A model generated the notes under the pieces. The model saw only the letters and a list, made by a program, of their open reading frames with translations, did not search any database and had not been told where the DNA came from. From Candidatus Woesearchaeota archaeon (lineage in GTDB: Archaea; Nanobdellota; Nanobdellia; Woesearchaeales; JAGWAF01): a stretch of DNA of 64,000 nt. Made by a program: the position numbers and the translations under genes. Positions 7,476 through 62,609 of the stretch are shown here, in pieces. The stretch spans positions 4,706-68,705 of the forward strand of contig JAGVYP010000066.1 in NCBI GenBank assembly GCA_018303205.1, written 5' to 3'. The first letter of the stretch is position 1. Every line of letters begins with the position of its first letter.

Positions 7476-7528
7476 AGTATCGGTAACGATATATCGGAAG
7501 CGATAGTATATAAAGGTTGCGAATATAC

Positions 7529-7670
7529 GGTAAAGTCAAGTTGTGTGTGTTGTGGGAATGCGGAGATCTTGCCACTCCGTTGATCGTGGTGTTTTGCGTC
7601 GAACATCCTGCATGAATCGGATGTTCTCCTGATATCACTCCAAGGCATCCCCACTTAACTTGACTTTACC
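7529..7670 (+). repeat. Structured repeat element, copy A (core 7552-7654 flanked by GTGGG/CCCAC; outer perfect 14-bp inverted repeat GGTAAAGTCAAGTT/AACTTGACTTTACC)
   Basis: GC-rich island. Conserved core CGGAG…TTGCGTCGA-[gaacatcc CTGCATGAATCG ggatgttc]-TCTCCTGAT…CTCCAAGG, shared with copies at 13941, 44423 and 62427. Confidence 0.75.
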
Positions 7671-7780
7671 TGGATGTACGTTGGTTATTGTTTTTTATTT
7701 CGTACTTTTGTTTATTTTTTTTATAAAGATGTAACTCAAACTAAAATTAAAAGAAAAAATGAGAAAGATTTGGGTTATCC

Positions 7781-9034
7781 CTATCTTTTTAATTTCTGAA
7801 CCATTGTTCCAAGAATCACTCCCGCAACATAAGAGCGATCAGCAGGTTCTTTAGTAGGACAAATTCTGAGATAAGAAAATCCATGCTTTGTTGCACTTTT
7901 GTTACTATTTCTAAAATCCTGATCAGGATCTCCCCTAAGATTTGCGGTAATCCAATCGAAGCCAGAAGTCATCAGCACTGGTGGATCTAATAATCCTAGA
8001 ACTTCTCTCGGATTCAAATATTCAGGAAGCATATAAGTTAAGATAGGCATCCCAGGAAACGCTTGTCTAAACTCACCCTGATCTGTTACAGAACGCAAAC
8101 CCGCTTGGAAGGCCTTACTATTCGCAATAAGCATTTCTCTTATTCTTTCCCCATACCTAGCCTGATACAAACTATCAATGGTGATTGCAGCGATATTCTC
8201 ACAGCCTTGACACCCTATAGCTATCTCAGGAGTTACCTGACTTAACTGTTTTGGTACTAAGGTCCATGTTATTCCTAAACCCCTTGCTCCCAATCTTTTT
8301 GATGTTGTCTCTACAATCACACTTCTCGAAGAATACTGAGAAGATGAATGTCTTTTTCCTTCTTCTTGCAACGCTCTGAAAGGGTCATCAAAAATAGGAA
8401 CAATACCAGAACGTTCAGCAATGGATTCTATTCTTTCTATGTGTTCTCTATTAAACCGATATCCTAAAGGATTCGCAGGATCAACAAGAATCAGAGCAGC
8501 AACATTGTTTTGCGCATGTTGTTCAAATCCTTCAACAAATTCTTCCGCGCTAGTCGCATGAAATCCATAACCTTGTGCACCTGGAACTTTTGTCATAACA
8601 TTATCAAAAATCCAGTTAGGTGATGCATAAAGAACAACAGGCTTATCTTGAGTAACTAATTTTTGAAGTACTCCTACTAATGCGTGTCGTGCGCCACTTG
8701 CAGATGTGAACAAGTTGTATCTCTCCAATTCAAGTGTTGTTTCTGCATGAAGAATTTCCCGAACAACTCCCTCAAGAGGCTTTTCAGTAACGGTTTCACA
8801 TCCAGAGTCAATAGTGTCTATAATTCTTCTTAGATATTCTAATTCGTGCGCATCTGTTCCAAAGGGAGCAAAATCAATATTTGCATCTCTAAAATCAAAT
8901 CCTATCAACTCACCCACAGGTGACCCGTATCCTAGATGAGCACTTGCAAAACCTAAAAGTCTAGGATCTCCTTTAGCTATCTCTTGTATCCTTCTTTGAA
9001 GTTTATCCCATTCTTCCTTCGGATCATTTGTCAT
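7781..9034 (-). CDS. class I/II PLP-dependent aminotransferase-fold protein (divergent)
   Basis: Degenerate aminotransferase motifs: LYASPNW (PxY), LILVDPANPLGYRF (NPxNPTG-like), IFDDPF, TSKRLGARGLGITW (SK…G.R.G with candidate PLP lysine). Confidence 0.5.
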   Translation of the reverse strand: MTNDPKEEWDKLQRRIQEIAKGDPRLLGFASAHLGYGSPVGELIGFDFRDANIDFAPFGTDAHELEYLRRIIDTIDSGCETVTEKPLEGVVREILHAETTLELERYNLFTSASGARHALVGVLQKLVTQDKPVVLYASPNWIFDNVMTKVPGAQGYGFHATSAEEFVEGFEQHAQNNVAALILVDPANPLGYRFNREHIERIESIAERSGIVPIFDDPFRALQEEGKRHSSSQYSSRSVIVETTSKRLGARGLGITWTLVPKQLSQVTPEIAIGCQGCENIAAITIDSLYQARYGERIREMLIANSKAFQAGLRSVTDQGEFRQAFPGMPILTYMLPEYLNPREVLGLLDPPVLMTSGFDWITANLRGDPDQDFRNSNKSATKHGFSYLRICPTKEPADRSYVAGVILGTMVQKLKR

Positions 9035-10284
9035 GGTTGATAATCTCGAATCCTTTCTGCCAACAACTTAGTACCTTGTCTAATACCATCTAAATCCATG
9101 TTTCCTGTAGAGACTCTTAACAAATGTCTGTGAGAGGTTCTTACTCTTTGTTCAGGATCATAGTTTTCGAAAGATCCTGTTAGGACATGGGGATGTTGAT
9201 CATATAAAAAAACAGTTAACTCTCCAGCATGTATAGCTCTAGGTAATTCTAATACTGAAATCATATGACTCGGAGAAGGCCTTCTTATCCTCATTTCAGG
9301 ACAAGCTTGTCCTAATTCACTATCCAATACGTCATTTCTTCTTTCTAATTCTTTCAATGCAGGTTGTTCACCGTAGATAAATATATTTTCTACAGTTCTT
9401 GCCAGTCCAAAAGGAGGAGGAGACACTCTCGGAACACTTTGTTTTACTTTCCGATTTCCTTCTGGAACAAGAATATAAGAAAGATATCCACAAGGTTTAT
9501 CCCCAAAACGCTTAGATAAGCCTTCAACAACATAAGGCATGGTAAACCATCTGCTTAAAGACTCTCTTTGTCCAAGAGGCTGATTACCCCTCATCACATC
9601 ATCTATAATAATTTCAACACCATATTTTAATGCAATAGTATCAATCTCTCTCGCTGCTGCTTCAGAAATACGATAAAGTAATGGATTAACAGGATCAACA
9701 AGAACCAAAGCTTTTATTTTCTTCTTTGGTGCAATCTTCCTAAAATTATCAACTAATTCTTGCTCTGTACTTGCCTCAAAATAAGCAAAATCATATTCCT
9801 GATTAGCAAAACCATCTAAGTTCCAAAAATGCCAATTAGGCAAAGGCATTGCAATTTGTCCACTTCTTCCAGCAAAGGCACGAAAAAGAAGGTCTATAGA
9901 TTGCCTGGTAGGTATCGGCAAAACAAAAACATCTTCCTCAGAACCATTCCATTCTGTTTCTCTTTTGCGCATATCACTAAAAACTTTTCTTATCTCACCA
10001 ACATCTTCTGTTTCCCCCGTTTGAACACCCACTCCTATTTCATCTCTTACAGAATCAAGAATCCCTTCTGGAATATATTTTGTAGCATTAAAATTATAAT
10101 GCGCTGTACCCAAATCATAAGTCACACAAGGACTATGACTCCTCTGACCACTTTGTATAATGATTAATCCTGATGATTCTTGAATTTCTATTAGTGGTGA
10201 TCCAGAACCACTTAAGAGAATATCTATTAGCGTTATTTCTATAGGTTTTTTCCTTCTCCTTTCTTCACTCATCACTCTGTTCAA
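9031..10284 (-). CDS. class I/II aminotransferase-fold protein, tandem paralog
   Basis: Same length (417 aa) and motif set (LVLVDPVNPLLYRI; LSKRFGDKPCGYLSYILVP). 4-nt overlap with the downstream paralog. Confidence 0.5.
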   Translation of the reverse strand: MNRVMSEERRRKKPIEITLIDILLSGSGSPLIEIQESSGLIIIQSGQRSHSPCVTYDLGTAHYNFNATKYIPEGILDSVRDEIGVGVQTGETEDVGEIRKVFSDMRKRETEWNGSEEDVFVLPIPTRQSIDLLFRAFAGRSGQIAMPLPNWHFWNLDGFANQEYDFAYFEASTEQELVDNFRKIAPKKKIKALVLVDPVNPLLYRISEAAAREIDTIALKYGVEIIIDDVMRGNQPLGQRESLSRWFTMPYVVEGLSKRFGDKPCGYLSYILVPEGNRKVKQSVPRVSPPPFGLARTVENIFIYGEQPALKELERRNDVLDSELGQACPEMRIRRPSPSHMISVLELPRAIHAGELTVFLYDQHPHVLTGSFENYDPEQRVRTSHRHLLRVSTGNMDLDGIRQGTKLLAERIRDYQP

Positions 10285-12332: not shown

Positions 12333-12902
12333 TTATTTTTGAATTTGTATTTCTCCTTTTTTTATTATCATCTTTGTAACAGAAGGCGCATCTTTATTGT
12401 TGTAGGAAGTAATACTTGCTATGTTCAGAGAGGTTCCCACTGGAAAGATGCTTTCTTTTCCGCTATGCTCATGCAGATGGCCGTGCACATGAAGCATATT
12501 TTTATTTTTTGTTTCTTCTAACATCTTTGTTATCTTTGCATCTCCCACATGACCAACTCCTTCAACCCAATCTTGGTCAGTTTCAGACAAGGGAGGTCCA
12601 TGTGTTACAAAAATCAGAGGTTCGTTTTGTTTTTGAAAGAAAGTAATTTTCTCTTGTGTTTCTTGATACTCTTTCTCTTCTAACGTAAATCCTTCTTTGG
12701 TAATGAATTGTTCATCATGATATCCTCTCAATGCTACCAGATTAACACCTTCAAGATCTGCATCATACAAATCAAAAACTAAAGGATATCTTTCTTGTAA
12801 TGCAGCTATTCCAGAAAAATAAACCTCTTGTTCTTCATGATTTCCAGGAATCACATATATCGGAATTCCTAGTTCTGCAAAAGGGGTAATGCCTTCAATC
12901 AT
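12333..12902 (-). CDS. calcineurin-like metallophosphoesterase
   Basis: Motifs GNHE, VTHGPP, HVHGHLHE. Confidence 0.75.
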   Translation of the reverse strand: MIEGITPFAELGIPIYVIPGNHEEQEVYFSGIAALQERYPLVFDLYDADLEGVNLVALRGYHDEQFITKEGFTLEEKEYQETQEKITFFQKQNEPLIFVTHGPPLSETDQDWVEGVGHVGDAKITKMLEETKNKNMLHVHGHLHEHSGKESIFPVGTSLNIASITSYNNKDAPSVTKMIIKKGEIQIQK

Positions 12903-12918
12903 CTCTTTTTTATTATCC

Positions 12919-13068
12919 TTACTCTCTGGATACAGGGATTGAAGGCATTACCCCTTTTTCGCTCACGATACCTAGGGTTATAGGCTCTTCTTCTCCACAT
13001 CCTATAAGAATAAAAACGAAAAAAAAGAGTACTACCATCTTGTTTATGTTCTTCATTTTTTTGAACAT
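12919..13068 (-). CDS. candidate small lipoprotein (49 aa)
   Basis: Hand translation MFKKMKNINKMVVLFFFVFILIGCGEEEPITLGIVSEKGVMPSIPVSRE. Signal peptide with a lipobox-like LIGC. Below the ORF-track size cutoff. Confidence 0.3.
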   Translation of the reverse strand: MFKKMKNINKMVVLFFFVFILIGCGEEEPITLGIVSEKGVMPSIPVSRE

Positions 13069-13940: not shown

Positions 13941-14040
13941 AGGTCATCACGGAGGTTTACTCTTCGTCCCTCAGAGCTCCTGCGAAATCAATCCTGCATG
14001 AATCGGATTGATTTCTGGTTTTACTCCAAGGTGATGACCT
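13941..14040 (+). repeat. Structured repeat element, copy B (perfect 10-bp inverted repeat AGGTCATCAC/GTGATGACCT)
   Basis: GGAGG…[gaaatcaatcc TGCATGAATCG ggattgatttc]…CTCCAA core. Lies between convergent genes. Confidence 0.75.
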
Positions 14041-14073: not shown

Positions 14074-15704
14074 CTACTCAACCTTCTTACAAGAACACGA
14101 ACAAACATTTTCTTCATCTAAGGAACTTTTTTCATAAGCCAAGAAACGATCATTGCATTTTTCCCTACAGCTCTGTTCACAAAGAGCTTTGTGTTTTGTT
14201 GCTTCATCAACTTCCTCTTCCTTGATATCATACACATACACAGAATACCCCGGCATTGCAATCGGAGTTTTCTCCCGTAGCCAAGCATAACACTCAGCAT
14301 AATACGGCTCCAAACCAATCAATGCATTAATGCTAATAACAGCAATACCAGGCAATGGCAAACATCCTAACTCATGCGCTTTGATACCATAATATTCTAT
14401 AGGCTCATGCCCAAAATACTTGATATTCACTTCCTCAATACCCTCTTTTTTCAAATACGAAACAACCCTCTTCAAGTCCTGTCCCCAATCAAGATTAGAA
14501 TCAAGCAATACTTCTTTTCCCTGTTCAGGACCTCCAGCAAAGACATTGAAATATGCAAGATACTGCGGCATAATCAAAAGATGAGAAAGTACAAAACCCA
14601 AAATAAGAAGCGCCATGCAACAGGAAAAAATATTCTTTTTCATTTTCTCTTTTATCTCTACATTCACAACTTTACTCACAAAAACGATAAGAAAAGGATA
14701 TACAGGCAGGATATGACGTACACCAATATTAATGTTGTTCATCATAAAAAAAACAAGATAAGCAAAAAAAGGAATGATCAAGAAAAATTCTTTTTTCCAA
14801 GATAAGGAAGGAATTTTTTTCCAAAAAAGAACAACTAAGATAAGGAGAGCAAAAAGCGCAGGAGGAGTCTTAAAAAACACTCTGAATGAAGCATGACATC
14901 TTTCAGTCCCACAAAAAACGCTTCAAAATGTACAAATTGGTAAACAGCAAACACAAAAAAAAGTGCGACGATAAAACTAGGAAAAAACCACTTTATTTTT
15001 TTCAAATACCCTTTTATTCCCTCACTTTTATCCTCTTTTAAGAAAAACCAGAGAAATACCAATAGTATTACAACGGGAAAAATAAGAATCCCAGAAAATT
15101 TACTTGCGAGACATCCACCCAAAGCAGTGCCAAGCAATACTGCTCGTTGCCAAGAAGGCTGCTGAAGATATCGCCATAAAAGATAGACACTCAAAAAGAA
15201 AAATAAGGTAACACCCAGATCAGTTGTCACATACTTACTATGTGCAAGGATATTAGGCTCTAATGCAATAAAAAATGCTGCTAATAATCCTGCTTTGACT
15301 CCATACAAACTTCGTGCGAAAAGAAATACGATAAAACATAAAAAAAGTCCTGCAAGAAGAATAGGCATTCTCGCCCAAAAAACAAGTTGTTCTTTTTTTT
15401 CAGGATTATTCAGAAAGAAAAATCTTCTTCCAAACTCCCACTGATCAGCTGTCTTCCAACTTGTTCCTGTATCATATTCAGGATCCAAGAAAAGCATGGG
15501 AAAACCTGCAAGAAGTTTCATCAAAGGAGGATGCTCAGGATTCAGACGATAATCTTGCAATTTCCAATAGGTAAATCCTGCAGGGATATGAGCAAATTCA
15601 TCAATCGTAAGAGAATCCCCCTTCATACTCCCTATTCCAAGCGAAAACATGAGCAGTAAGATGATCGCTAAAATTCCATACTGATACTTTTCAACAAAGC
15701 TCAT
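14074..15704 (-). pseudogene. ArnT/PMT-family GT-C glycosyltransferase split into two frames (N-part 14835..15704, C-part 14074..14880) at an A6/T6 homopolymer (14872-14877)
   Basis: N-part carries DEFAH…HPPLMK (the DE…(K/H)PPL hallmark of COG1807 GT-C enzymes). Both frames are open across 14837-14922. Adding a single T to the T6 run fuses them (…LHSECFFKTPPALFALL…) into a GT-C protein of about 555 aa. Confidence 0.6.
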
Positions 15705-42680: not shown

Positions 42681-43604
42681 ATGAAAACATTAACCCTTCC
42701 CCCCGTTACAGAACCTGTCCAAGTTTATAGAACATTAGACGATCATTTCACAAAAGAAGCAGAAGAAATCTCTGATCCTGAAAGAAAGGAGAGAGTACTG
42801 AAAGCAATCAGAAGCCTGAACACTCCTGTTTATGCTACCATTGCCTATGTCCTCACAACAGACTCAGATTTAGCATCCCAAGTGCATGATCACGTTTTGG
42901 CAGAAGTTCTTTATGTTCTTTTTCTTGATGATGCTCATGAAAAAGAAGCAAGCGCATCACGATCAAGAGAAAAAGGAAAATTAACTGATGCAGCAAAACA
43001 CGCTACAAAGGCACGAGAGTATAAAACAAGAGCAGAACAAGAACATGCTCGTGTTATTTCTTCTCTTTCAGCTGAACAAAAAGCTGAGCTCTCCCTCTTT
43101 GAAAGAGACTTTGCTCTTTACTGGGAATTTGAAAAATATTTTAGTCAAAGAATGAGAAATGGAGATCCTATTAATGAAACTGAAATGATGAACTTCGTAG
43201 AAAAAAAATCAGGGGATGTTTATCTCTATGCAAAACTTTTAGAATTCCAACTCAGAACAAAATTAGTACCAAAACAATTCAAAACATTAGATTTCTTAGA
43301 TTTTTTAATTCATGCCCAGCTCAAAAGAGACCTTGCTCATGATGAAACAGATATTTTCAGAGATCATCAAGAAGGCATGCCAAATCCTTTTTTGATCCAA
43401 GCTTACAGAAAAGGGCTCTATATTCCAGGTAAGGTATATTCTTCAGAAGAGTTACAAACTATAACAAGAAGAGTGAGAGATGTTCATCACTGTGCAGTTC
43501 GCTCTGATCTGAGCCCTACTCTCCCCATTTCATCACCTTTTGATTGGATAAAAGAGTGTCGAAAACCTTATAAGAATGGAGCTTTACCTCCTTCTTTATC
43601 ATGA
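42681..43604 (+). CDS. hypothetical helical protein
   Basis: 307-aa ORF, GC somewhat above background. 4-nt overlap with the downstream rsmB-like gene. Confidence 0.4.
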   Translation: MKTLTLPPVTEPVQVYRTLDDHFTKEAEEISDPERKERVLKAIRSLNTPVYATIAYVLTTDSDLASQVHDHVLAEVLYVLFLDDAHEKEASASRSREKGKLTDAAKHATKAREYKTRAEQEHARVISSLSAEQKAELSLFERDFALYWEFEKYFSQRMRNGDPINETEMMNFVEKKSGDVYLYAKLLEFQLRTKLVPKQFKTLDFLDFLIHAQLKRDLAHDETDIFRDHQEGMPNPFLIQAYRKGLYIPGKVYSSEELQTITRRVRDVHHCAVRSDLSPTLPISSPFDWIKECRKPYKNGALPPSLS

Positions 43605-44419: not shown

Positions 44420-44422
44420 AAA

Positions 44423-44523
44423 GTGCCATTGCCTTGGAGCAAGATCAGGAGACAACGCGATTCATGCAGTGTTGTCGACGCAAGATCTCCGATCAACGGA
44501 GGAGTAAATCTCCGTAATGGCAC
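44423..44523 (-). repeat. Structured repeat element, copy C (consensus orientation on minus strand; perfect 8-bp inverted repeat GTGCCATT/AATGGCAC)
   Basis: Reverse complement reads …ACGGAG…TTGCGTCGA-[caacac TGCATGAATCG cgttg]-TCTCCTGAT…CTCCAAGG. Most similar to copy A. Confidence 0.75.
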
Positions 44524-44605
44524 GGAAAATATCATAAAAAATAAGAAACATTTGATAAAAGACACAAAAAACAAAAATTTGATAAAAAATAAAAAGTGAC
44601 GAAAC

Positions 44606-51166: not shown

Positions 51167-51880
51167 TTAGTGCCCTCCTAAATACAAATGTTCTACTTCT
51201 TTATCATGTAACAGTTCTTCACCTGTTCCTTCCAAACGATTTCTTCCCAACTCTAAAACATAAGCTCTGTCAGAAAGCTTTAATGCCATACGAGCGTTTT
51301 GTTCTACCATGAGGATAGCAAGTCTTGTTTCTTTATTGATCTCCTTCACTTTTTCAAAAATAAGCTTTTTCATCTTCGGACTTAAACCAAGCGTTGGTTC
51401 GTCCATCAAAAGAAGTTTTGGCTTGATTAACAACGCTCTTCCCAGAGCAAGCATCTGCTGTTCTCCACCACTCAAAAGGCCTGCTTTTTGCTTTTTTTTG
51501 TCTGCTAACACAGGAAATTGTGAGTACACTTCTTTTATCCTTTTATCCAAATCCTTTTTCAAAATAAAACCAAGAAGTTCTAAATTTTCTTCTACCCTTA
51601 AACTTGGAAATACTGATCTTCCTTGAGGTACAAAACTTATTCCTTCTTTTACCAAATGATGTGATGCAATAGTACTGATTTCTTTCCCTTGTAAAAAAAT
51701 ATTTCCCTCTTTTCTTGGGACAAGATTTGCTATTGCTTTCAAACAAGTACTCTTTCCCGCTCCATTAGGCCCAATAATAGAAACGATCTCTCCCTCTTTT
51801 ACATGCATATTGACCTGATGCAAGATTTGTGCCTGATCATACCACGCGTTAAGATTTTTTATGGTTAACAGATTACTCAT
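51167..51880 (-). CDS. branched-chain amino acid ABC transporter ATP-binding protein (LivF-like)
   Basis: Walker A GPNGAGKST, signature LSGGEQQMLALGRAL, Walker B LLMDEPT. Confidence 0.85.
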   Translation of the reverse strand: MSNLLTIKNLNAWYDQAQILHQVNMHVKEGEIVSIIGPNGAGKSTCLKAIANLVPRKEGNIFLQGKEISTIASHHLVKEGISFVPQGRSVFPSLRVEENLELLGFILKKDLDKRIKEVYSQFPVLADKKKQKAGLLSGGEQQMLALGRALLIKPKLLLMDEPTLGLSPKMKKLIFEKVKEINKETRLAILMVEQNARMALKLSDRAYVLELGRNRLEGTGEELLHDKEVEHLYLGGH

Positions 51881-52332
51881 AATTCTTCCTCAATAAGACT
51901 TTTTATCATTACTATCTCATTCTTGCCATCACTTCTCAGATGAGAGAGTACTCCTCCTTCTTGGTATCCTCTCTGCTTGTTTCTTGTTCGTGCATTTTGA
52001 TTTTGTTCTGCACAGCTTGTTATCACTTTTTGAAATCCTAACTGTTTGCAATAAGACTCTACAGTCATCATTAATTTCGTATCAAAACCCTCATGTTCTT
52101 CTCCTCTCATTAAAAAAGGCTCATGAAGATACGGAAGAAACAACACGCTTCTTTTTTCAAGTAGGAGATATCCTCGAGGTGTCTGATCTTCCAGAGCAAT
52201 AAAAATCTCTTCCTTGTTTATCTTTTCTGTAAAAAATCTCTCTGCCATAGGCTGGAGAGGATAATATTCCTGATACAACTGTTGCAAAAAAACAAGATCT
52301 GCTTCTGTTGCACTTCTCACCCATCGTCTCAT
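51877..52332 (-). CDS. putative GNAT-family acetyltransferase inserted in the liv operon
   Basis: 151 aa with a weak acetyl-CoA-binding-like segment (RGEEHEGFDTKLM). 4-nt overlaps with both neighbours. Confidence 0.35.
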   Translation of the reverse strand: MRRWVRSATEADLVFLQQLYQEYYPLQPMAERFFTEKINKEEIFIALEDQTPRGYLLLEKRSVLFLPYLHEPFLMRGEEHEGFDTKLMMTVESYCKQLGFQKVITSCAEQNQNARTRNKQRGYQEGGVLSHLRSDGKNEIVMIKSLIEEEL

Positions 52333-53105
52333 ACATCTCCTCCTAAGTACGCGTCAATAACACGCTTGTTCTTTCTTATTTCCCCAGGCTTTCCTATTGC
52401 AATTTCTTCACCATAATCAAGCACAATAATCTTGTCTGCAATGTTCATCACAAATTCCATATCATGCTCAATAAAAAGAATTGTTGTACCCTTCTTTTTT
52501 AATTCGAGAAGAAGCTCTCTTATTTTTTTTAGCATGCTTGGATTTACACCTGCTGCAGGTTCATCCAACATCAGCAATACAGGTTCTTTGTACATTGCAC
52601 GTGCTATCTCCAAGAGCTTTTGTTGTCCATAACTCAGGTTTCCTGCTTTTTCGTTCTGTAGTTTCTTTAACCCAACTCTTTCTAATATTTTTAATGCCTC
52701 TTCTCTATTCATCCTTTCTTGTTCTCTCATTTTTTTATTTTTCAAGAAAACATGATACACTTTTTCATACACGTTAGGAGATGCTATCAACATATTTTCC
52801 ATCACACTCATCTTCGGAAATAAGCGTATCGTTTGGAACGTTCTTGTTATACCTTGTTGTGCTCTCTGATGAGGAAGCAAGAAAGTGATATCTCTTCCTT
52901 TCCACAGGATCCTTCCTTGTTCTTGTTTCATAAATCCCGTAATTACATTAAAAACGGTTGTCTTCCCAGCCCCATTCGGTCCTATCAAAGCTGTGATGCT
53001 TTTTTCTTCTACTTGAAAACTACAATTCTTAACAGCAATAACTCCTCCAAACGATTTATGGAGTCCCTCAACTTGCAAGATCATGATTTCCTCTCCTCTT
53101 TTCAC
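52329..53105 (-). CDS. branched-chain amino acid ABC transporter ATP-binding protein (LivG-like)
   Basis: Walker A GPNGAGKTT, signature LSYGQQKLLEIARAM, Walker B LMLDEPAAG. Confidence 0.85.
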   Translation of the reverse strand: MKRGEEIMILQVEGLHKSFGGVIAVKNCSFQVEEKSITALIGPNGAGKTTVFNVITGFMKQEQGRILWKGRDITFLLPHQRAQQGITRTFQTIRLFPKMSVMENMLIASPNVYEKVYHVFLKNKKMREQERMNREEALKILERVGLKKLQNEKAGNLSYGQQKLLEIARAMYKEPVLLMLDEPAAGVNPSMLKKIRELLLELKKKGTTILFIEHDMEFVMNIADKIIVLDYGEEIAIGKPGEIRKNKRVIDAYLGGDV

Positions 53106-53973
53106 CTAGCAATCCTTCTCTTTTATAGAGCATCAGCACAACTAAGATGACACCGTATAATAAAAATTTTATACCTGCTTGCATCTCTATAGAAACAGGA
53201 AGCCATTCTTGCACGACCATTTTGAAAAGTTCAGGAAAAATGATCAACAGCACAGCACCCAGAACACTTCCTGCAATGCTTCCCAATCCTCCCAGCACAA
53301 CCATGCACACGATAATGATACTTTCCATAAAACCAAAAGAATTAGGCTCAATATACGTAATATAATGCGCAAATAAACTTCCAGCGATTCCTGCAAAACA
53401 TGCTCCTAGAGAAACCGCAATAACTTTGTACTGGAAAACATTTTTTCCTAATGAGGAAACAGCTAATTCATCCTCGCGTATTCCACGCAATACTCTACCA
53501 AAAGGACTCTGTGCTATACACCACAGCAAAAAAATACAGAGCACAGCAATGATCAGGTATAAAACAAAATACTGAAGTTGCGTTTTTATAACTATACCAA
53601 AAAAAGAAGGACGAGGAATACCTACCAAGCCTAAAGCTCCTCTGGTAAGATCTCCGCCATTTTTTAAAAGAATACGAACAATTTCTCCAAAACCCAATGT
53701 TGCAATAGCCAAATAATCTCCCCTTAATCGTAAACTACTTCCTCCAATGACCAAACCAAAGAGTGCAGCTACACATCCTCCACTGATCATGCTTATCCAA
53801 AAAGAAAAACCTGCTAAAGACAGCAATGCAGACGTGTACGCTCCCAAGGCAAAAAAAGCAGCATGACCCAAATTAAGCAGTCCTGTAAAACCCAAAATCA
53901 TGTTCAAACTTACCGCGAGAATGCTATACATACAGATCATAATCGCAATGCTCAAAAAATAATCCGTGATCAT
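53068..53973 (-). CDS. branched-chain amino acid ABC transporter permease (LivM-like)
   Basis: 301 aa polytopic membrane protein. Confidence 0.8.
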   Translation of the reverse strand: MITDYFLSIAIMICMYSILAVSLNMILGFTGLLNLGHAAFFALGAYTSALLSLAGFSFWISMISGGCVAALFGLVIGGSSLRLRGDYLAIATLGFGEIVRILLKNGGDLTRGALGLVGIPRPSFFGIVIKTQLQYFVLYLIIAVLCIFLLWCIAQSPFGRVLRGIREDELAVSSLGKNVFQYKVIAVSLGACFAGIAGSLFAHYITYIEPNSFGFMESIIIVCMVVLGGLGSIAGSVLGAVLLIIFPELFKMVVQEWLPVSIEMQAGIKFLLYGVILVVLMLYKREGLLGEKRRGNHDLAS

Positions 53974-55040
53974 GCACGCACCTCTTCTTCTTTTTGTTGT
54001 CCAAAAAACCCAGAAGGCTTCAAGAGTAACATCAGTAATAAGATGACAAATGCTATCGCATCCTTATACCCACTCGGAATAAACCAGATACCTATATTTT
54101 CTGCAAAACCAATAAAGTACCCACCCAATACTGCGCCATAGATATTACCAATGCCTCCAATAACAGCAGCAGTAAACGCTTTTATCCCTGGAACAATACC
54201 CATGGTAGGATGCAAGTTTTGTTCAATCCCAATCAAGATGCCAGCAACAGCAGCCAATCCTGAACCTATCATAAAAACAAGAGAAATCACCTTATCAGGA
54301 TTAATACCTATTATTTTTGCAACATCCATATTATCAGTTACTGCACGCATGGCTTTTCCATACTTCGTGTACTTCAAAAAAAGATGCAAAAGAATCATGA
54401 TAATAATAGACGTGAGAATAATAAGGAGTTGATGAGGAGTTATACTTGCCCCAAATACTTCATAACTTTCTTGCGTTTTATACTCAAAACTTCGTATCTC
54501 ACCGCCAAACATTAGCAATGCAAGTGCTTGAAGAATAATAGAAAAACCAATCGCAGTAATCAAAGGAGTTAGCCTATCCTTACCACGCAATTTTTTATAT
54601 CCCACTTTTTCTATAACGAATCCTAATATTGCGCACACGATAATTGATATTAACGCACTGATCCAGAGCGGCAAAGCATGCACCAGAAGATACAAGAAAA
54701 AATACGAAATACTCTTAGCAACGACCAAAAGAATACCTGCAATGATCAGATACTGATACCACACTCTCTTTTTAAAAAAAGAATCAAAAGGAATATGATA
54801 CGCTAAAAAAAGAACAACAAGAATACTCATAAACCAGGAAAAAGGCACTGCAACCTGCATCGGAAGAGCGACAGAAGCAGCATACGCAGTATAAGCACCT
54901 ATCATAAAAATTTCACCATGAGCAAAATTAATGAATTTGAGAACACCATACACCATCGTATAGCCTAATGCAATCAACGCATAGATACCTCCAGCAAGAA
55001 TACTATTCAGAACAAGCTGTACAGCAATACTCAGGTCCAT
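53970..55040 (-). CDS. branched-chain amino acid ABC transporter permease (LivH-like)
   Basis: 356 aa polytopic membrane protein. First gene of the operon. Confidence 0.8.
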   Translation of the reverse strand: MDLSIAVQLVLNSILAGGIYALIALGYTMVYGVLKFINFAHGEIFMIGAYTAYAASVALPMQVAVPFSWFMSILVVLFLAYHIPFDSFFKKRVWYQYLIIAGILLVVAKSISYFFLYLLVHALPLWISALISIIVCAILGFVIEKVGYKKLRGKDRLTPLITAIGFSIILQALALLMFGGEIRSFEYKTQESYEVFGASITPHQLLIILTSIIIMILLHLFLKYTKYGKAMRAVTDNMDVAKIIGINPDKVISLVFMIGSGLAAVAGILIGIEQNLHPTMGIVPGIKAFTAAVIGGIGNIYGAVLGGYFIGFAENIGIWFIPSGYKDAIAFVILLLMLLLKPSGFFGQQKEEEVRA

Positions 55041-55109
55041 AACCTGAAAAACTCTCCCAGTCTTTTAAGCTTTGCGGGAACAAAGATCTTATTAAGGTTG
55101 GCATCCTCA

Positions 55110-55137
55110 GGTCGAAGAGTAAACCTCCGTGACGACC
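55110..55137 (-). repeat. 28-nt remnant of the structured repeat family (5' arm of a copy-B-type element)
   Basis: Reverse complement GGTCGTCACGGAGGTTTACTCTTCGACC matches copy B 5' end AGGTCATCACGGAGGTTTACTCTTCGTCC at 25/28 positions. Itself a short palindrome (GGTCG…CGACC). Confidence 0.55.
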
Positions 55138-55294
55138 TTCTAAAGAGATAATAAATCAAAAAAATGAATAAAAAATGGATTCTGCCTCACTTTTTCATTA
55201 AGAGCGTGCATAACATAATCAAATTGTCCTCTCCGGCAGTGTAAAAAGCGTTCTGCTAAGAAAGCTTTATAAGAATCTTATATTCATAAATTGT

Positions 55295-56398
55295 ATGAAG
55301 CTATTCATGGTAGGTTATGTAGTCATACTCTTACTCTCAAATATCATTCTAGCTCAGGAGGAAAACGAGACTCTTGATTTTACTAAAGATAGAAACATTC
55401 TCCCACCCTCCCCTCCTGATGAGAATACGATCAATATCATTTTTGAAATTCGTGATGAAGCGGAAAATTTGCTTTCAAATACACACCTTATTTTTATCTT
55501 GACGAATACCCAAACTGATGAAACACTCAACCTTCTTCAATATACCGATACAGGAACAACTTTTCTGAACATAAAAAAAGGTATTTGGAAGGGTAAATTA
55601 GGAGTTGATGAAGCAATACATTTAGGAAGTGATTATTTTGCAAATATTTATCTGGATACAAATGAAAAAAGAGAGTATACTCCTCATCTTATTCATGTTG
55701 GAAATATTCTTGGAGAAGTTTATGATGAAAATAACCGGCTTGTCAAAGGAGCAAAAGTGAGTTCGCAATGTACTCAGTATTTAGTAGAAGATAGTGAAAC
55801 TGATGAGTTTGGAACATTTCTTCTTGAGTATCTTGCTCCAGGAGAATGTCGTATTGCTGCTTTGTATGATGATCGTATCGGGTTTAGTACCGTTATGATA
55901 ACGCCAAGTACTTTGACGTATGCAAAAATTATTCTTGATCAAAGAACCGTTCAAAATAATACAAACCTTTGGTTTATAGGGGCAGTAGTTATCATTTTCG
56001 TATTCTTTCTTTTTTACCAGTTCAATAAAAATAAAACAAAAAAAGATGATGTTGGGCAACAAAAAAATAAAAAAAGTATACAACTACAAAAAAAAGAAAA
56101 AGTTCAATTACCAAAAAAAGAAGAAAAAAATATTCAACAAGAAAAGAACGACATTGATCAAAAGCGTGTCAATGATATCCTTAACTCATTAAAAGCAAGA
56201 GAAAAGCAAATCGTCACGTTTCTTTTAGAAAATAACTACCAAGCTACTCAAGCAAAAATTATTTCCGGTACAGGAATTCCCAAAACTTCATTGATGAGAA
56301 CCTTAGATTCCCTTGTTATGAGAAATATTATTCAAGTTCAGAAGATACAAAAAGCAAAGAAAATAAGCCTTACTAATTGGTTTTTAGGGATGGAATAA
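55295..56398 (+). CDS. membrane-tethered winged-helix (MarR/TrmB-like) regulator with extracellular CarboxypepD_reg-like domain
   Basis: Signal peptide, extracellular domain of about 220 aa (…GEVYDENNRLVKGAKVS…ETDEFGTFLLEYLAPGECRIAAL…), one TM (LWFIGAVVIIFVFFLFYQF), K/Q-rich linker, then a C-terminal HTH (…KQIVTFLLENNYQATQAKIISGTGIPKTSLMRTLDSLVMRNIIQ…). Confidence 0.55.
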   Translation: MKLFMVGYVVILLLSNIILAQEENETLDFTKDRNILPPSPPDENTINIIFEIRDEAENLLSNTHLIFILTNTQTDETLNLLQYTDTGTTFLNIKKGIWKGKLGVDEAIHLGSDYFANIYLDTNEKREYTPHLIHVGNILGEVYDENNRLVKGAKVSSQCTQYLVEDSETDEFGTFLLEYLAPGECRIAALYDDRIGFSTVMITPSTLTYAKIILDQRTVQNNTNLWFIGAVVIIFVFFLFYQFNKNKTKKDDVGQQKNKKSIQLQKKEKVQLPKKEEKNIQQEKNDIDQKRVNDILNSLKAREKQIVTFLLENNYQATQAKIISGTGIPKTSLMRTLDSLVMRNIIQVQKIQKAKKISLTNWFLGME

Positions 56399-57364: not shown

Positions 57365-58969
57365 ATGCAAAGAAGATGCGAAGAAATTTGGAGGAAAAAT
57401 AACATGAAAAATACAAAAAATGCAGCAAATTCAACATATATTTTTATGTTCAATATACTTATGATAACTCTGATTAGCATATTTACACTATCTACAGTGT
57501 CTATAGTTTATGCTCAAGAGACAGGTGATTCTCTTTTTTATAATGGTGAAGTTCTTTTGAAGTTTCACAGCCTTTCAGATGATGAATATGCAATGACATT
57601 TACAAATATTGAAGGTGCAAATTTTAGACCTATTCTTGTAAACAATGAGAATGTTGATGGTCCATTCAAGTTTGATATTATATTCAAAGAAGCAGCAAAT
57701 CAATGTGATTTCACAAATGGAATTAAGAGGGGAGAAGAATTTCTTTTAAGCTCTGCTGCTGATGGTGCAGGAACAACACATGTGCTTAAGTATCAAAGTG
57801 CAGATTTAACTAACAGAGAACTCACTTTTTTAGAAAGAAGCAACATAGAAATAACGTATGAAATTTCTACAGAAAATTGTAGCGGGCAGCAAATAGGCAG
57901 ATTTAATCTTATCATCGCCGGCATACAGTATAAAGGGTATATTAACACGGCAACAAGCGTAATTACTTTGAGTCTCAACACAGATCAAGCTATTGACGGC
58001 GACAAAATAAAATTAGTAACCAAAGAAGGTTTTGTGATTACTATGCCTGACAGTCTATCAAATGGCGAAGCAAGAGTATCAATCGCATTTCCAAGTGCAT
58101 ACGCTCATAATGATATAATTGTAAGCTTGCTTGCTGCTCCAGCTAATGAAGTTGATGCAAGAGTGAATGGAGTAACTCTTACTGAAAAACAGCAAGGAGA
58201 TATGCTTTACAAGTACGCACTTCTTTCAAATAATCTTTATGTATTATGGGAGCAAGAAACAGATACGAGAGACCCACCAACGATCTATCTTAAAACATAT
58301 GTTAAACAAAATGATGAAATTTTAGAAGAAATAGAAGAACTAGAACAAAGAGAAGAACAACTAGAAAGAGAAGAACGAAGAGAGAAAGAAGAACAAATAG
58401 AACAAAGAGAGAGAGAAGAACAAAGAGAATTACTTGAAAACAATAAACAAGACAGAACCATAACTCCTCCAACTTTTCCTGGAGAAATTGTAACAAGTGT
58501 ATCTTTGAACAAAGGCTGGAACTTGGTAAGTTTAGGTGCAGAAGTGCAAAATTTCTTGCCTTCTGATTGTTCTGCTGACAAAAAACTGGTTGCTTTTGTG
58601 TATATTTCAGATCTTAAAAAATATGTGAGTATCAAAGAAGCAAGGGAAATCTTAGGCAAAGATTTTGGAAAATATTTTGAAGAACATAGTTTTTGGGTAT
58701 ATTCTTACAGTGATTGTGTGCTCAAAACAACGGTAAAGAAAGTGAGTGTTGAGAAATTCCTTTTAGATGAAGGTTGGAATCTTTTGACGGTTCCAAGTTT
58801 TTTTGCAGGTAAATCTTTTGTTGATATACAAAACAGTTGCGATGTCCTTAGTGCTTATACGTGGAAAGCAGACAAGCAGCAATGGGTAACACTTGAAGAT
58901 CAGCAAAAAATGGAAGATAATGGGCAGGGAATTATTGTCAAAGTAGATAAAAGCTGTATCATGCAGTGA
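57365..58969 (+). CDS. secreted protein with central acidic coiled-coil linker (E/R/Q-rich)
   Basis: Signal-peptide-like hydrophobic segment after Met-14 (alternative start 57404 preceded by GGAGG). Beta-rich N-domain, EELEQREEQLEREERREKEEQIEQREREEQRELLE linker, C-terminal domain. Confidence 0.55.
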   Translation: MQRRCEEIWRKNNMKNTKNAANSTYIFMFNILMITLISIFTLSTVSIVYAQETGDSLFYNGEVLLKFHSLSDDEYAMTFTNIEGANFRPILVNNENVDGPFKFDIIFKEAANQCDFTNGIKRGEEFLLSSAADGAGTTHVLKYQSADLTNRELTFLERSNIEITYEISTENCSGQQIGRFNLIIAGIQYKGYINTATSVITLSLNTDQAIDGDKIKLVTKEGFVITMPDSLSNGEARVSIAFPSAYAHNDIIVSLLAAPANEVDARVNGVTLTEKQQGDMLYKYALLSNNLYVLWEQETDTRDPPTIYLKTYVKQNDEILEEIEELEQREEQLEREERREKEEQIEQREREEQRELLENNKQDRTITPPTFPGEIVTSVSLNKGWNLVSLGAEVQNFLPSDCSADKKLVAFVYISDLKKYVSIKEAREILGKDFGKYFEEHSFWVYSYSDCVLKTTVKKVSVEKFLLDEGWNLLTVPSFFAGKSFVDIQNSCDVLSAYTWKADKQQWVTLEDQQKMEDNGQGIIVKVDKSCIMQ

Positions 58970-62216: not shown

Positions 62217-62426
62217 GCTTCTTCACTCACTCAAGTATTTCTCCCCAGAAATTGCTAATAGTATGAAGAAGAAGGCATTCTTTATAAAGCTTATCTTTTT
62301 CAGATCTCAATTCTCTTTTCATTTCTCTTGTTTTTTTGTTTACTCTTTTTCTTTTCATAAAAATATAAATCAAAACATAAATACTCTACTGAAAAAATAC
62401 GATAAATAGTAGAAGACATTAATAAA

Positions 62427-62533
62427 GCATAATTTGTCACCTTGGAGTACAATGAGGAGACGAGTGATTCATGCAACGAAGTCGACGCAAAATCTGCGAG
62501 GGACGAGCAGCAGATCTCCGTGACAAATTATGC
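62427..62533 (-). repeat. Structured repeat element, copy D (consensus orientation on minus strand; perfect 14-bp inverted repeat GCATAATTTGTCAC/GTGACAAATTATGC)
   Basis: Reverse complement reads CACGGAG…CTCGTCCCTCGCAG…TTGCGTCGA…TGCATGAATC…TCTCCTCAT…CTCCAAG. Closest to copy B in the 5' region. Confidence 0.7.
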
Positions 62534-62609
62534 AAAACTTTTGTCTTCTACTAAAAATGAGAAAAAATTATAAATGTCAAAAATAAGAAACCATAATAAA
62601 TTTGTCTGT

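Follow-up and report, generated by a model that had tools for sequence, protein, structure and literature searches.

A short patch upstream of a livH-like permease gene, found in a 64,000-nt stretch of DNA that we refer to as the window, is a fragment of a structured repeat family and not a member of it, since it gives no significant score against the covariance model of the family. We assign a probability of about 0.7 to the reading that this patch is a decayed B-type copy, most likely produced through one internal deletion, and that it has no function of its own; its lack of function is presumed, being a reading only.

Full copies of the family in the window

The family unit is a three-helix hairpin of ~100-160 nt. 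It has a terminal stem (P1), frequently prolonged by an outer stem, a C-GGAG box with CUCC-AAG-G as its pairing partner, and two hairpins, the small P2 and the long P3, of which P3 usually has UGCAUGAAUC as its loop. Searching the window with the family covariance model yields four full copies and no more, scoring 79-102 bits, at ~7554-7652 (+), 13941-14040 (+), 44423-44523 (-) and 62427-62533 (-). With their outer repeats, where present, they are as follows:

Copy A, 7529..7670 (core 7554-7652), plus strand; outer inverted repeat GGTAAAGTCAAGTT/AACTTGACTTTACC
Copy B, 13941..14040, plus strand; family-model score of 101.6 bits, the full copy nearest to the remnant in sequence
Copy C, 44423..44523, minus strand; within a 186-nt spacer (44420-44605)
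Copy D, 62409..62551, minus strand; outer inverted repeat GTAGAAGACA/TGTCTTCTAC, with a 14-bp P1 that spans 62427-62533

The sequence of P1 differs in each of these copies, yet it always pairs. In fact, copies within one genome share only ~60-70% identity, and their stems are fully compensated. The 9-mers that flank copy A (CGAATATAC and TGGATGTAC) are 6/9 identical, and a search for a target-site duplication or an outer inverted repeat around B, C, D and the remnant gave only 8/9 matches, as T-rich flanks give by chance.

As for the B type, an exact 19-mer of copy B had 0 matches in the JGI metagenomes. One JGI contig (L090) holds an element that has the P1 and P2 of copy B exactly and is 83% identical to it overall, adjoining the unrelated genes for S27e and aIF2-alpha. 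Given that such a near relative stands beside unrelated genes, the B type is a young lineage that has moved.

Several other features were observed near the full copies. An 18-bp perfect inverted repeat (GGGGTAATGCCTTCAATC ... GATTGAAGGCATTACCCC) at 12884-12954 crosses the start of the ORF at 12333-12902 (-), and its weak match to the family model (E = 0.03) is owed only to the stem and to AAGGCA. The gene for a PMT-type glycosyltransferase beside copy B, at 14074-15704 (-), is split into overlapping ORFs (14074-14880 and 14835-15704) and is a single gene of 569 aa in the relative L208; the split may reflect a frameshift or a pseudogene. Beside copy A, at 7781-10284, there are two ORFs of ~417 aa, one aminotransferase-like and the other without a Pfam match, and a 307-aa ORF without a Pfam match lies at 42681-43604, between CysRS and RsmB near copy C. 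All three are missing from the syntenic blocks of relatives.

A partial copy of B upstream of livH

The patch is read on the minus strand and consists of three pieces:

Remnant, 55109..55138, minus strand; A GGTCGTCAC GGAGG TTTA CTCT TC GACC T, with the core 28-mer at 55110-55137
Remnant piece 1, 55129..55138, minus strand; 5′ arm of the terminal stem P1, A GGTCGTCAC
Remnant piece 2, 55114..55128, minus strand; GGAGG box, TTTA linker, 5′ half of hairpin P2 (CTCT) and first two loop bases
Remnant piece 3, 55109..55113, minus strand; GACCT, the same as the last five nt of the 3′ arm of copy B (14036-14040)

The minus strand of 55110-55137 reads GGTCGTCACGGAGGTTTACTCTTCGACC. At ≤3 mismatches, the sole other match to this 28-mer in the window is 13942-13969 (+), the 5′ end of copy B, from which it differs by 2 mismatches (26/28 identity); adding the shared A located 5′ of the 28-mer brings the identity to 27/29. 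None of 100 dinucleotide-preserving shuffles gave two matches, and we estimate that ~6e-9 chance matches would be expected under a uniform base model. A preliminary description of this DNA had already pointed to the likeness with the 5′ arm and GGAGG of copy B, and that match holds, although the identity is 26/28 and not the 25/28 proposed there. When all the 22-mers of the four full copies were compared with the window (≤3 mismatches), the patch was the only fragment found and was related to copy B only, and no matching 3′ part of copy B was found elsewhere in the window. Thus, what had been called a truncated copy of the family is indeed a degenerate partial copy, and it belongs to the B lineage.

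The patch retains GGTCGTCAC-GGAGG, which corresponds to the 5′ arm of P1 and the C-GGAG box, one base off copy B. Its P2 is incomplete, comprising the 5′ half (CTCT) and 2-3 loop bases only, and both the P3 hairpin with its UGCAUGAAUC loop and the CUCC-AAG-G box are missing. The sequence that comes after the patch (TGAGGATGCCAACC...) aligns to no copy of the repeat family. On the other side, the T-rich flanks 5′ of the patch and of copy B resemble each other no better than chance (empirical p ~0.5), and homology of the upstream flanks of copy B and the remnant was rejected as being at the level expected for T-rich DNA. A sequence-only HMM profile built from two copies recovered the four full window copies and, as a weak fifth match, the patch (E = 0.063). 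The family covariance model, run on the window with its filters off, gave nothing at 55.1 kb at E ≤ 10.

Internal deletion or truncation

Compared with a copy B that carries one internal deletion, the 31 nt at 55108-55138 are 29/31 identical (AGGTCATCACGGAGGTTTACTCTTCGACCTT predicted, AGGTCGTCACGGAGGTTTACTCTTCGACCTG observed; 2 mismatches), while plain truncation of copy B leaves 4 mismatches in 31. The deletion alignment joins ...CTCTTC(G) to (G)ACCT, the final bases of the 3′ arm of copy B. Piece 1 differs from copy B once, by an A-to-G change at 55133, and piece 2 is the same as copy B in 15/15 nt. Piece 3, according to this alignment and the fold, pairs with the first bases of piece 1 to form a small palindrome, GGTCG/CGACC, and the short palindrome of the preliminary description is real. 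If the deletion reading is right, the patch would close into its own palindrome, and the homology would stop at the P1 boundaries on both sides, because both outer ends of P1 were kept. By the same counts of mismatches, and with the last 4-5 nt of the 3′ arm apparently kept, the patch is probably not the solo 5′ arm that it had been taken for.

A true solo 5′ arm would instead be the product of plain 3′ truncation, in which the breakpoint of a rearrangement fell 28 nt into a B-type copy and two later substitutions chanced to make the 5-bp closing palindrome. We regard this as unlikely. It would agree with the position of the patch at a gene-order break, described below, and the 26/28 match requires no gap. 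However, truncation doubles the mismatches in the 31 nt, from 2 to 4, and requires both substitutions to land exactly where the stem is completed, which by our own count holds for 8 of 3402 possible double substitutions; in addition, the matching 3′ part of copy B is found nowhere else in the window. Against the deletion history, it must be said that its edge over truncation amounts to two extra matching bases only, and that the microhomology at the deletion junction is just 1 nt.

For the internal deletion, the following sequence of events can be proposed. A B-type copy would have arrived between livH and its divergent neighbour, where the gene order departs from that of relatives. A single deletion of ~70 nt would have brought the beginning of the P2 loop up against the final four bases of the 3′ arm, and one A-to-G change would have come after the deletion; of the B-type copy, 26 nt at the start and 4-5 nt at the end would then be left over. 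The relic folds into a 5-bp hairpin because the outermost P1 pairs are among the retained ends, and the family fold is out of its reach because it lacks P3 altogether, as well as the CUCCAAGG box and the 3′ half of P2. Most likely, the relic is a small hairpin ~70 nt 5′ of livH and has no further role.

The four contigs from which the liv site was recovered do not differ from one another, and identity falls to 74% with the next LivH relative; therefore, we infer the history of the remnant rather than observe it, and this applies to the order of events as well as to the deletion itself. Among the contigs that carry the locus, no allele with a full element was found. An excision footprint, as had been suggested for this patch, is thus not upheld, since neither an empty nor a full allele of the liv site was found.

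The liv locus and other explanations of the patch

A BPD_transp_2 permease ORF starts (ATG at 55040) 69 nt downstream of the end of the patch, and a second permease gene and two ABC ATPase genes come after it. This confirms the earlier placement of the patch on the promoter side of a liv operon. The two ORFs on either side of the patch are as follows:

livH-like permease ORF (BPD_transp_2), 53970..55040, minus strand; first gene of the liv cluster, the others being at 53068-53973, 52329-53105 and 51167-51880
Divergent neighbour ORF (CarboxypepD_reg-like), 55295..56398, plus strand; no homologue cluster beyond itself

The permease in the window is 100% identical to a protein of Candidatus Woesearchaeota archaeon, and the window is therefore that of a DPANN archaeon. 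Of the next LivH relatives, one is 74% identical and the other 65%; a lipoprotein gene precedes livH in both of them, and LivJ and DM13 genes also precede it in the 65% relative. The CarboxypepD_reg-like ORF stands where relatives have lipoprotein, DM13 and LivJ genes. Given that the window lacks the LivJ, DM13 and lipoprotein genes found ahead of livH in the relatives' loci (L076 and L077), the relic sits at a gene-order break.

Two side observations concern this region. The locus of the 65% LivH relative includes a complete copy of the family element (L077:2845-2934, minus strand), located between the DM13 and lipoprotein genes, ~1.1 kb upstream of livH and on the other strand, with a ~55-nt insertion in the P2 region. 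In the window, 9-nt-period GAA/GAG-rich repeats at 58306-58447 lie within an ORF without a Pfam match (57365-58969) and look like a Glu/Lys-rich low-complexity coding repeat.

Neither the 74% nor the 65% relative has a sequence like the 28-mer ahead of livH, the best match having at least 10 mismatches, and hence the patch is not a conserved liv motif. The preliminary description had set such a promoter motif against its own interpretation, and the absence of the 28-mer from both relatives removes that objection. More generally, the idea that the likeness is due to chance, or to a conserved liv promoter motif unrelated to the repeat family, has nothing in its favour other than the shortness of the match. 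It is refuted by the shuffles (0/100) and by the livH upstream regions of the relatives, and the very small number of chance matches expected also stands against it.

It is quite improbable, moreover, that the patch is a functional cis element, that is, a leader or promoter-proximal liv hairpin that imitates the B element's 5′ domain and might bind the same factor, or form pairs in trans with the 3′ part of that element (CUCCAAGGUGAUGACC). The patch has the orientation of livH and ends close to its ATG, the A-to-G change makes its stem longer and could hint at selection for the hairpin, and the 3′ arm of copy B is complementary to it if one G-U pair is allowed. Nevertheless, the stability of the hairpin is ordinary (-11.9 to -14.1 kcal/mol; z = -0.74), the regions upstream of livH in both relatives hold nothing closer than ≥10 mismatches, and the loop bases are likewise identical to those of copy B, which fits recent copying rather than a pairing constraint. 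Furthermore, neither base pairing nor a promoter and terminator profile marks out a transcribed strand for the family.

Integrases duplicate part of a tRNA gene, and one could imagine that the patch is an attachment core duplicated in the same way by site-specific integration into a B element. The patch is, in fact, a short copy, with exact ends, of part of a structured repeat, and it lies 41 kb from copy B. However, copy B and the patch are on opposite strands, and are thus inverted and not direct repeats, the composition and GC skew have no shift at either end, and no integrase was found among the scanned neighbouring ORFs; we consider this origin highly improbable. A large inversion between copy B and the relic was also rejected, given that GC skew and composition have no shift.

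Fold and distribution of the family

The family fold is real, and all its helices covary strongly. In the family alignment, 92.9% of the cells are paired, and double changes are found at 22 of the 25 family base pairs. The covariation score of 0.679 was reached by none of 500 shuffles, which gave 0.177, and sliding the partners gave 0.08-0.13. The covariance model R1, for which 57 sequences were used, gave 134 matches in 835 kb of Woesearchaeota loci. With a strict pattern, 72 stretches were found in species-representative genomes, almost all of them labelled Woesearchaeota and with ten or more per MAG, and 119 stretches were found in JGI metagenomes; in viral contigs, the family pattern had 0 matches.

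When the window was searched against Rfam 15, only one tRNA reached the gathering threshold. At E ≤ 10, copy A had no matches, and copy B had five weak, chance-level matches, all far below the gathering score. A full-text literature search for structured or non-coding RNA in DPANN or Woesearchaeota returned nothing describing the repeat family.

The family helices (alignment A8; 170 pattern matches) are almost purely Watson-Crick, with G-U pairs at ~0.5-3%, no commoner than A-C mismatches. For instance, P3 has 1296 Watson-Crick, about 9-10 G-U and about 21-22 A-C pairs, and P1 has 48 G-U vs 42 A-C. Since G-U is no commoner than A-C, both strands are equivalent in pairing terms, and an attempt to call the strand from these two kinds of pair found no asymmetry. 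Such a near absence of G-U is unusual for an RNA gene family. A promoter and terminator profile of 72 copies gave no positional TATA-like or oligo-T signal on either strand.

A number of known structures were considered by inspection and rejected, the family fitting none of tRNA or T-arm, C/D or H/ACA guide, K-turn, hammerhead and integron attC. The archaeal bulge-helix-bulge motif has two 3-nt bulges on opposite strands, with a 4-bp helix between them. The family has half of this only, namely one bulge (AAG) and the 4-bp helix (GGAG/CUCC); the second bulge and the inner helix are unsupported by the alignment.

Judging from its outlying sequences, the superfamily is wider than the pattern used to find it. 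Larger or divergent relatives (L060:2140-2300, L065:2590-2830, L070:4962-5085 and L074:3184-3311) keep P1, C-GG(A/C)N and N(U/G)CC-AAG-G, and they have other P3 domains, without the UGCAUGAAUC loop. The MAG UBA10207 has a unit of ~182 nt, with 80-99% identity, on many contigs (L027, L038, L043, L047, L055, L069, L070 and L023). At its 5′ side, this unit has an additional hairpin (GCGGCC-UAAA-GGCCGC), and its P1 is extended and contains a second bulge of 3 nt; the copies look like a recent burst in that genome.

Mobile-like behaviour of the family

The family behaves like a small non-autonomous mobile element, and its single copies are not fixed. Copy C lies in the 186-nt spacer between an RsmB-like and a PUA-domain gene. 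In four relatives with the order CysRS-RsmB-PUA (RsmB identity of 73, 69, 58 and 52%), there is no gap between these two genes, or they overlap, and the model finds no element at this place. Similarly, the spacer that holds copy B is 173 nt in the window vs 3 nt between the same two convergent genes in the nearest relative (L208), and there is no element there.

Some units have defined ends. In the MAG SI073_bin58, a 161-nt unit is present on three contigs with 90-97.5% identity; it ends in a 16-nt terminal inverted repeat, GGCTAATATGAAC.../...TTCATATTAGCC, and two of its copies are flanked by ATTTTTCTC/ATTTTTCTC and CTTGTCTGT/CTTGTTTGT. Another unit, of 149 nt and GGTAAAGTCAA-ended, with the same outer repeat as copy A, is found in different contexts with 95-98% identity, and the repeat ends are exactly where its homology breaks off; the copy in L184 has CTGATTTAG/CTGATTTAT on its two sides. 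For young copies in L051, L061 and L184, the flanking 9-mers match at 9/9, 8/9 and 8/9. The unit ends vary by subfamily (GGTAAAGTCAA; GGCTAATATGAA; AATGAATSACC; none for B), and the internal core is conserved. As for a partner, no transposase domain was found in the scanned ORFs of the window, the loci fetched from other genomes showed no transposase either, and 1.16 Mb of these loci contained no distant paired ends of the kind expected of an autonomous element.

The proposal of the preliminary description that the patch derives from a mobile or recombining element is thus well founded: copy C is absent in four relatives and copy B in one, and there are units of 90-99% identity with inverted-repeat ends, some with 9-bp direct repeats. 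Its further argument, that the four full copies are not independent ncRNA genes of ancient origin, is right for the positions of the single copies, which are not ancient, but not for the family, which is spread across Woesearchaeota and whose helices all covary strongly.

The site upstream of PadR at which copy A stands (window 7520-7679; L208:345-505; L163, L184, L174 and L137) has the GGTAAAGTCAA-ended unit in several related genomes, in either orientation, and in each genome the flanking 9-mers resemble each other (6/9 to 8/9). This pattern is due either to a recent flip or to repeated insertion at a hotspot. In-situ inversion would be one reading for copy A, the counterpart of which is opposite in L208. 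Given that the flanking 9-mers match within a genome better than between genomes and that the unit also occurs elsewhere, independent insertion at a hotspot is at least as likely as inversion for this site. A separate MITE of 227 nt (L208:128-354) has gone in directly next to the family element upstream of PadR in this relative; its terminal inverted repeats are 14 bp long (GCTCTGTCCTAAAT), and it is accompanied by a target duplication of 10 bp (GATTAAACGG).

Comparison with known systems and significance

Like MITEs, the family is small, non-coding, intergenic and multi-copy, and its elements are present or absent between syntenic relatives. It has near-identical bursts in some genomes and, in some subfamilies, terminal inverted repeats together with 9-bp flanking direct repeats. 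The relic, with both ends apparently kept and the middle lost, also resembles deleted transposon copies. However, the termini of MITEs are conserved, whereas here the termini and stems vary, and what Woesearchaeota have conserved throughout is the core (the UGCAUGAAUC loop and C-GGAG ... CUCC-AAG-G). Moreover, no partner transposase was found for this family, and copies B, C and D and the remnant have no target duplication above chance.

REP/REPIN, ERIC, Correia and Rickettsia palindromic elements are dispersed palindromic units of ~100-150 nt with long hairpins, which are intergenic, occur in either orientation and persist in a lineage. The family can be likened to them as a set of dispersed hairpin units between genes. 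In contrast to these elements, it is archaeal (DPANN) and has a branched three-helix core, and no RAYT-like gene was seen.

Multi-copy families of structured small-RNA genes, such as those for tRNA and archaeal C/D-box sRNA, also leave partial pseudo-copies. The repeat family shares with them variable stems, conserved loops and junctions, many paralogues per genome and strong covariation, and some of its copies are antisense to both neighbours. On the other hand, it has almost no G-U, no strand asymmetry, no positional promoter or oligo-T signal and no Rfam match, and its single loci are not conserved between relatives.

By itself, the patch would be ordinary genomic debris. What gives it context is that the four "ncRNA-like" copies in the window belong to an abundant family that is found across Woesearchaeota and is absent from Rfam. 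The full copies would be better annotated as dynamic structured repeats rather than as fixed small-RNA genes, and some subfamilies bear marks of transposition. It is unusual for a branched core to be deeply conserved while the ends vary and G-U is almost absent, and with this family DPANN genomics gains a concrete object for work on genome plasticity.

It is possible, if somewhat doubtful, that the family represents an undescribed class of archaeal mobile structured element, in which a three-way-junction core is conserved across Woesearchaeota and the termini are not, both strands keep strictly to Watson-Crick pairing in the helices, and a partner transposase is not apparent. If this were true, it would suggest that the folded core, as single-stranded DNA or RNA, is recognised by the copying machinery or by the host, and the relic upstream of livH would be a decay product that records recent B-type activity in this genome.
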